A DNA stretch of 2,149 bases from Dictyostelium discoideum (taxonomy: Eukaryota), in contig CH709177.1 of the NCBI GenBank assembly GCA_000004695.1, positions 1-2,149 of the forward strand. Direction: 5' to 3'. Positions 1 to 244 of this stretch are shown here, in pieces. How positions within the stretch are numbered: position 1 is the stretch's first letter; every line of letters starts with the position of its first letter. A program made the position numbers and the translations under genes. The notes below the pieces were generated by a model. It was not told the origin of the DNA. It did no database searches and saw only the letters and a program-made list of their open reading frames with translations.

Positions 1-212
1 ATCTTTTGATTTTTGTTCTTCCTGATTTTTGGTAATGTTTGTTTCCAATTCATAATCTTATGATAGGTTTCTCTAATTGATTCTGAACAAAATGGTGGAT
101 AACCAACCAACATTTCAAACATAATAACACCAACACTCCACCAATCACACTCTGCACTGTAACCATCTTTCATCAATACTTCTGGTGCAGTATAGTCTGG
201 TGTTCCAATTGA
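1..212 (-). CDS. Fragment of an NDR/LATS-family AGC serine/threonine protein kinase catalytic domain (subdomains VIII-XI only). Truncated on both sides and open at the window start, so probably a captured gene fragment or pseudogene piece, not a functional gene.
   Basis: The reverse-complement of 206..1 translates without stops as [68 protein letters not shown]. The GTPDY.APE, DWWS.GVI..EML.GYPPF and ETY.K.MNWK.TL motifs are diagnostic of the NDR/LATS kinase subfamily (established family knowledge). Upstream in the same frame there is a TGA stop at +213..215 (minus-strand codons ...NVC*SIGTPDY), so subdomains I-VII are absent. Homology stops near +30; the last ~20 nt (minus 21..2) match the coiled-coil unit end sequence instead. 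Confidence 0.75.
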
Positions 213-244
213 TCAACAAACATTACTGATCAATTGGAACACCA
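198..244. repeat. Perfect 18-bp inverted repeat (198..215 tggtgttccaattgatca / 227..244 tgatcaattggaacacca) with an 11-nt spacer. It is a palindromic fold-back junction between the minus-strand kinase fragment and the plus-strand coiled-coil array.
   Basis: Direct reverse-complement comparison. In addition, 198..225 is the exact reverse complement of the 28-nt unit-start motif at 1198..1225 (taatgtttgttgatcaattggaacacca), and 27 of those nt recur at 926..952. Confidence 0.9.

Follow-up and report, generated by a model that had tools for sequence, protein, structure and literature searches.

Several described processes leave unrelated pieces of DNA between common ends. Concatemers of mis-primed (arbitrarily primed) PCR products contain unrelated inserts with the same primer-derived termini: the donor sequence begins where it matched the 3' end of the primer, off-target products are of small size, units follow one another head-to-tail or meet head-to-head, with minor losses or gains of sequence, and copies differ by transitions. 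Rearrangements by microhomology template switching (MMBIR/FoSTeS-type), like templated insertions, bring in short and identical copies of distant sequences, in mixed orientation, with microhomology at the junctions and errors close to them; separate events have breakpoints of their own, and templates tend to lie close by. Pack-MULE and Helitron elements carry non-functional fragments of unrelated host genes between common ends, i.e. terminal inverted repeats or Helitron-type ends, together with target-site duplications, and we know of no capture mechanism that needs homology between the cargo and these ends.

The window considered here, i.e. the whole stretch of 2,149 nucleotides that was analysed, is AT-rich, Dictyostelium-like DNA, and it can be compared with each of these systems. 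It resembles mis-primed PCR concatemers in every trait listed above, and differs from them in that its long product matches no known gene and that one joint bears a 1-nt deletion. With MMBIR/FoSTeS and templated insertions it shares the templated copies, their orientation, the microhomologies and an error near a junction; by contrast it reuses the same two switch points instead of independent ones, its templates are not nearby, its microhomologies are unusually long (11-15 nt), its donor sites look like the best-annealing ones, and a whole unit is inverted, boundaries included. The likeness to Pack-MULE or Helitron capture is superficial: terminal inverted repeats, Helitron ends and target-site duplications are missing from the window, and its cargo is undiverged from the parents, with limits defined by homology to the ends. 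Finally, the window recalls the NDR/LATS kinase genes, since residues 334-394 of ndrB are present at 100% nucleotide identity; unlike these genes, however, it holds only 61 codons out of 542, preceded by a stop codon and followed by a frameshift. As argued below, the window is most likely not a real biological feature.

Boundary strings and unit joints

Two strings delimit the units of the window: X (TAATGTTTGTTGATCAATTGGAACACCA, 28 nt) and Y (GAAGAACAAAAATCAAAAGA, 20 nt). Repeat finding in the window gave two exact copies of X, one on each strand, a third copy with one mismatch at its first base, and four exact copies of Y, one of them on the minus strand (Table 1). Each string matches its own copies only, and X and Y are never the arms of one inverted pair. 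The significance of these counts was evaluated with 200 dinucleotide-preserving shuffles of the window: the expectation was 0.00 matches for X and 0.03 for Y, and the observed counts were reached in 0 of 200 shuffles. Low-complexity chance matches, which the preliminary description had named as a possible pitfall, are thereby ruled out. Its central observation, that three different bodies share identical ends, is borne out by the exact matches of X and Y: the same ends stand around three unrelated bodies, belonging to ndrB, to rpa43 and to a coiled-coil coding sequence. The resulting X-body-Y units measure 224 nt for the inverted kinase unit (2-225), 269 nt for the rpa43 unit (926-1194) and 709 nt for the coiled-coil unit, and the window holds exact repeats of 248-300 nt.

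Table 1. Positions of the boundary strings, donor fragments and coiled-coil units along the window
Feature	Positions	Strand	Remarks
Y copy, 3' end of kinase unit	2..21	-	exact 20-mer match; T at position 1 follows
ndrB fragment	23..208	-	residues G334-I394 of 542 aa; 186 nt, 100% identity
X copy, 5' end of kinase unit	198..225	-	exact; last 11 nt (TTGGAACACCA, 208-198) also native ndrB
Head-to-head junction	198..244		inverted full X, 1 nt (C226), X minus first 10 nt
Coiled-coil unit 1	227..925	+	truncated X 227-244; Y 906-925
X copy opening rpa43 unit	925..952	+	first-base mismatch; directly abuts preceding Y
rpa43 fragment	946..1189	+	residues T204-S284 of 356; 244 nt, 100% identity
Y copy closing rpa43 unit	1175..1194	+	then filler AGA, then next X
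Coiled-coil unit 2, complete	1198..1906	+	709 nt; X 1198-1225, Y 1887-1906
Partial third coiled-coil copy	1907..2149	+	joined straight to Y end; out of frame; runs off window

X brings an ATG to the start of the coiled-coil frame (ATG at 1200 in unit 2) and also carries a TGA. In the X copy of the kinase unit this TGA lies at 212-210, so that the stop codon noticed earlier just upstream of the kinase piece is indeed there, inside X; the rpa43 piece, too, lies between two such TGA codons, one in each neighbouring X. The calculated Tm is ~64 C for X and ~53 C for the reverse complement of Y. Neither string was found in any of the fetched loci, parent genes included, nor in papers by literature search. 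No primer, vector or adapter was recognised in the window, and megablast against plasmids and phages gave no match. Rfam and tRNA scans of the window, exact look-ups of its 4 full ORFs and of 10 alternative gene calls, and exact-pattern scans for the window in viral, metagenome and prokaryotic genome contigs were equally negative.

What lies outside the strings is more telling. The four copies of Y are followed by four different continuations (A then ATG..., AGA then TAATG..., GAAAAAC..., which is internal coiled-coil sequence, and T), and the sequences preceding X differ in three cases of three (AAAAG, AAGA and TCAG). Because the continuations after Y and before X differ every time, the start of X and the end of Y behave as free physical DNA ends. 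The unit-to-unit joints show 0-3 nt of filler or some nibbling, one X being short of 10 nt, and the kinase unit is inverted as one block with its own X and its own Y. No ORF across any junction was found in the window ORF list: the unit 1 frame meets a stop after four codons of the rpa43 piece, and the joints of the rpa43 piece and of the third copy are out of frame.

The head-to-head joint at 198-244 forms a perfect 18-nt inverted repeat with an 11-nt loop (dG -18.7 kcal/mol, z -7.5). This hairpin exists because an inverted X meets a trimmed X at the joint. Ligation at the GATC, BclI or MfeI sites of X was considered as its source and ruled out, the inverted repeat being centred on none of them.

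The ndrB and rpa43 fragments

Translated from the minus strand, positions 1-225 match the Pfam Pkinase profile with E=3e-16 (profile positions 158-222 of 263), and the best solved relatives of the kinase piece are the NDR kinases STK38 (human, E=1e-28) and Cbk1. The D. discoideum orthologue was found by a search with a 547-aa NDR kinase homologue, and a cluster look-up gave its name, ndrB (DDB_G0288753). The piece is identical to the orthologous protein at 61 of 61 residues, and at the DNA level window positions 23-208 are identical to AX4-type ndrB (locus L007, 3928-4113) at 186 of 186 nt; two wild strains show 1 or 2 synonymous differences from the window in this stretch. These matches place the piece in the NDR family, and the parental locus that the preliminary description proposed to look for is thus ndrB, found intact.

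The kinase piece runs from subdomain VIII to about subdomain X (GTPDY...NWKQTLPKI) and ends before the arginine of subdomain XI. It falls short of an open reading frame spanning the whole catalytic domain from subdomain I to XI. It is a fragment of ndrB, neither a kinase gene nor a paralogue, and the earlier view of a mid-domain fragment that cannot be an intact gene holds (residues 334-394 of 542). The details of that view need some correction: kinase sequence does lie between the two arms, but over 186 nt (23-208) instead of 176, overlapping X by 11 nt; and it does begin at subdomain VIII, but stops near subdomain X and not XI. An intact or spliced kinase gene in the window is ruled out, as the intact ndrB lies elsewhere and only codons 334-394 are present here.

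At the joint of the kinase piece with Y (window 22-24), the minus strand reads AAAATCA then GGAAGAA, the T of the native ATCATGG being deleted. This is the sole difference from ndrB in ~193 nt; past the deletion, GGAAGAA (22-16) still matches ndrB, into the start of Y.

Two minor observations concern the kinase sequences. The kinase frame just upstream of the TGA (220-228, minus strand AGT AAT GTT) reads Ser-Asn-Val, a triplet that also precedes GTPDY in native ndrB, where it is encoded by different codons; the agreement is probably a coincidence made by the junction. The 547-aa homologue used as query is itself an intact NDR kinase, encoded at 214-1857 of L001, a JGI metagenome contig (Ga0256900_1012357). 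It is 95% identical to a Polysphondylium violaceum protein, which indicates that dictyostelid DNA is present in that metagenome.

The body that the preliminary description had taken for an unrelated N-rich/acidic segment is certainly a distinct cargo with the same ends, but it can now be named: it is a 244-nt fragment of rpa43, the gene of an RNA polymerase I subunit, covering residues 204-284 of 356. Window positions 946-1189 equal positions 3783-4026 of the rpa43 locus (L006) at 244 of 244 nt. The Asn run of the piece has the length found in AX4 RPA43 (P0170), from which the strain variant P0171 differs. More generally, in the tail of rpa43 (L006 ~3800-4040) the lengths of the Asn and Ser runs vary among D. 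discoideum strains, as seen between P0170 and P0171.

Both parents, ndrB and rpa43, are single-copy genes and lie on different chromosome-scale records. As both cargo pieces are 100% identical to these single-copy parents, the events that produced them were either extremely recent or not evolutionary at all.

The limits of the two pieces are also informative. At the X side, native ndrB reads caaacgTTGGAACACCAgac and shares the last 11 nt of X, while native rpa43 reads atgaAACACCAaat and shares the last 7 nt of X (AACACCA), by which the rpa43 piece overlaps this string. At the Y side, native rpa43 reads GAAGAACAAAAATCAtca and shares the first 15 nt of Y (GAAGAACAAAAATCA), again the extent of the overlap, while native ndrB reads atcatgGAAGAAgcaaaagcagaag, with a 6-nt run (GAAGAA) and 15 of 20 positions shared overall, the window lacking the T of ATG. 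The parents thus match the inward-pointing 3' ends, that of X and that of the reverse complement of Y; beyond these 3' matches, X or Y stands in place of the parental sequence.

We scanned the donor loci with X and the reverse complement of Y treated as primers. No other site in the ndrB locus has a 3' run as long as that of the X-site used (11 nt, against 7 for the next best), and the same is true of the Y-site in the rpa43 locus (15 nt, the next best again 7). For the other side of each fragment, the Y-like site used in ndrB is both the nearest one downstream and the best match, and the X-like site used in rpa43 is the only one with a 3' run of at least 6 nt within 1.5 kb. In both donors the X-like site is upstream of the Y-like site and on the same strand, and each short unit combines one strong with one weak site, a pairing characteristic of mis-primed products. 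Since the cargo is limited where the parents match the inward 3' ends of X and Y, its limits point to annealing or priming and not to a recombinase or a transposon.

The first 15 nt of Y are also found at 2452-2471 of L007, in the N-terminal coding region of ndrB (REEQKSVK). This additional site is ~1.5 kb upstream of the captured fragment and its position does not account for the kinase unit; nevertheless, the presence of the 15-mer in both donor genes looks like more than chance.

Origin of the joined units

With moderate confidence, we read the window as a concatemer of mis-primed amplification products that share primer-like ends. In this reading X takes the role of a forward primer, and its reverse partner is the reverse complement of Y. 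Such a primer-like pair would have amplified the 709-nt coiled-coil unit as its long product and, by mis-priming on AX4-type DNA, two short ones, of 224 nt on ndrB and of 269 nt on rpa43. At the binding sites the primer-like sequence would overwrite the donor bases, and the donor sequence would resume where the 3' end had matched. The units would then be joined end to end in random orientation, with few bases lost or gained at the joints, possibly by in vitro ligation, by late-cycle overlap extension, or by end-joining after entry of the DNA into cells. As for the third copy, the free 3' end of Y may have mis-annealed to a similar internal site. The joined product would be non-functional and not an evolved genetic element.

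The donor identities, the anatomy of the units, the boundary overlaps and the terminus-like start of X and end of Y can be read directly from the window and its parents; we infer the agent, an oligonucleotide pair with amplification, and the place of joining. In favour of mis-primed amplification are the same ends on unrelated inserts, the pairs of sites that are 3'-matched, properly oriented and close to each other, the free-end behaviour, and also the size of the two mis-primed units, much shorter than the 709-nt one. The error-free copies of two single-copy genes, the mere two transitions between the coiled-coil units, the lack of any ORF across a junction, the Tm values of the strings and the ATG that X provides count in its favour as well. 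Three points stand against it. An intended template with its primer pair was not found, the coiled-coil sequence being an orphan and the strings being absent from papers, plasmids and phages; there is the 1-nt deletion at the ndrB/Y joint, which simple mis-priming does not predict; and the Y 15-mer recurs in the N-terminal coding region of ndrB, a coincidence for which mis-priming does not account.

A rearrangement in vivo, in a laboratory strain of D. discoideum, by template switching of the MMBIR/FoSTeS type or by templated break insertions, seems to us unlikely. In the form that we consider, itself unlikely, replication or repair synthesis within a tandem array of the coiled-coil unit would have copied short stretches of ndrB and rpa43 and returned to the array, and slippage would have made the third copy. 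The 6-15 nt of microhomology at every body/boundary junction and the 100% identity of the inserts to their donors are in line with this; but two independent donors, located on different chromosome-scale records, must then have replaced the same interval of the array at the same two switch points. An inverted segment and an 18-nt fold-back junction also speak for such events, yet the inverted kinase piece, with its own X and Y, needs four precisely placed switches. The indel beside one junction could come from error-prone break-induced synthesis, and the third-copy junction, within a 30-nt stretch of ~80% similarity, is typical of slippage. On the other hand, each locus seems to have been used at its best annealing sites, which fits hybridisation in vitro better than a cellular search, and the host coiled-coil array is absent from the annotated D. 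discoideum proteomes. It is very doubtful that a real array, chromosomal or extrachromosomal, exists in a D. discoideum strain, in which the boundaries of the coiled-coil repeat are hot spots where short pieces of unlinked genes enter by microhomology-primed templated insertion; equally doubtful is the corresponding natural "copy-in" process, giving cassette-like units with common ends. If true, this minority reading in vivo would mean that templated insertion recurs at one hot spot in a social amoeba, within a coding repeat outside current proteomes, and it would matter a good deal to the study of repair and replication.

We also consider it quite unlikely that the arrangement was made by computation, either through mis-assembly at short shared strings or as a sequence that stands for no single physical molecule, machine-generated sequence included. 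The edges of the window certainly fall at Y copies (it starts 1 base past one and ends a few bases short of the next expected one), as would be the case if repeat nodes, where assemblers break contigs, had delimited it, and the 20 nt of Y are exactly k-1 for k=21. However, ndrB shares only 11 + 6 nt with X and Y, and rpa43 only 7 + 15 nt, and short-read graph assemblers collapse exact repeats like those of 248-300 nt present here. Genuine genomic reads cannot have been merged into a chimera by a de Bruijn or overlap join, the parents being devoid of X and Y and sharing only 6-15 nt with them; as the parents lack these strings, molecules already bearing X and Y must exist. The orphan coiled-coil unit, and the fact that neither the window nor exact variants of its ORFs were matched in any collection searched, speak for an origin by computation. 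But an autoregressive generator would not copy 186 nt of ndrB, as its reverse complement, and 244 nt of rpa43 without error, and machine-generated sequence is unlikely given these error-free copies of real genes. Highly improbable, lastly, is a natural cassette or module system in which X and Y would be recombination or transposition boundaries (Pack-MULE, Helitron or integron-like), as three types of cargo with the same ends and one inverted cassette may first suggest. X and Y are not mutual inverted repeats; the window has no terminal repeats or target-site duplications and no duplicated flank at the unit joints, and no recombinase or transposase is found among its ORFs or Pfam matches. Moreover, the parents are copied in the cargo at 100% identity, the limits of the cargo follow from homology to the boundary 3' ends, units meet at irregular joints, and none of the annotated dictyostelid proteomes of the collection contains the module.

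The interpretation given in the preliminary description is in the end partly supported: the anatomy that it reported largely stands, but gene-fragment capture or module swapping, understood as the work of a biological cassette, disagrees with the complete identity to the parents, the limits set by 3' ends, the variable joints and the loss of frame. If the joining of mis-primed amplification products is the right reading, the case is a cautionary one, as artefacts of amplification and concatenation can closely imitate an array of cassettes that have captured fragments of genes. Such an artefact would betray itself by three signs that are quick to check elsewhere: homology to the boundary 3' ends sets the limits of the cargo, the cargo is 100% identical to its donors, and the joints between units are irregular.

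The coiled-coil unit

The third body is a coding unit of 237 aa, rich in Lys, Glu and Gln (e.g. ORF 234-965). Units 1 and 2 show two differences only, at 526 and 665, both of which are G/A transitions. The body has no Pfam match. An exhaustive phmmer search of 1.84 billion representative proteins gave no relative, and a word-indexed search of 5.8 billion clusters returned rpa43 orthologues only, without any relative of the coiled coil. According to a local control, an exact copy of the coiled-coil sequence would score 355 bits at those database sizes and a 50%-identical copy ~118 bits, and even the latter would have been detected. The protein collection includes the AX4 proteome, several newly annotated Dictyostelium genomes and Logan ORFs from D. 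discoideum-type runs. Together, the null searches and the control indicate that the unit is absent from the annotated dictyostelid proteomes of the collection.

These protein searches are blind to patchwork pieces under ~30 aa. Speculatively, Lys/Glu-rich genes may have supplied pieces of less than ~30 aa that make up the coiled-coil unit, a mosaic origin that would reconcile its lack of relatives with an AX4 template. A unit with no relatives merits follow-up, whether the window is an artefact of amplification or the product of events in vivo.

The 266-nt "third copy" is a duplication of the second half of the coiled-coil unit: positions 1902-2149 are identical to 1636-1883, with a period of 266. 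The third-copy joint lies inside a stretch of ~30 nt in which the region ending in Y (1877-1906) is ~80% similar to an internal coiled-coil site (1611-1640). This likeness indicates that the coiled-coil unit has an internal sub-repeat.

On the minus strand, the window also contains a stop-free ORF of 559 aa (223-1902), whose translation is rich in Phe, Leu and Val. Judging from this composition, we take it as a by-product of the purine-rich plus strand and not as a gene.
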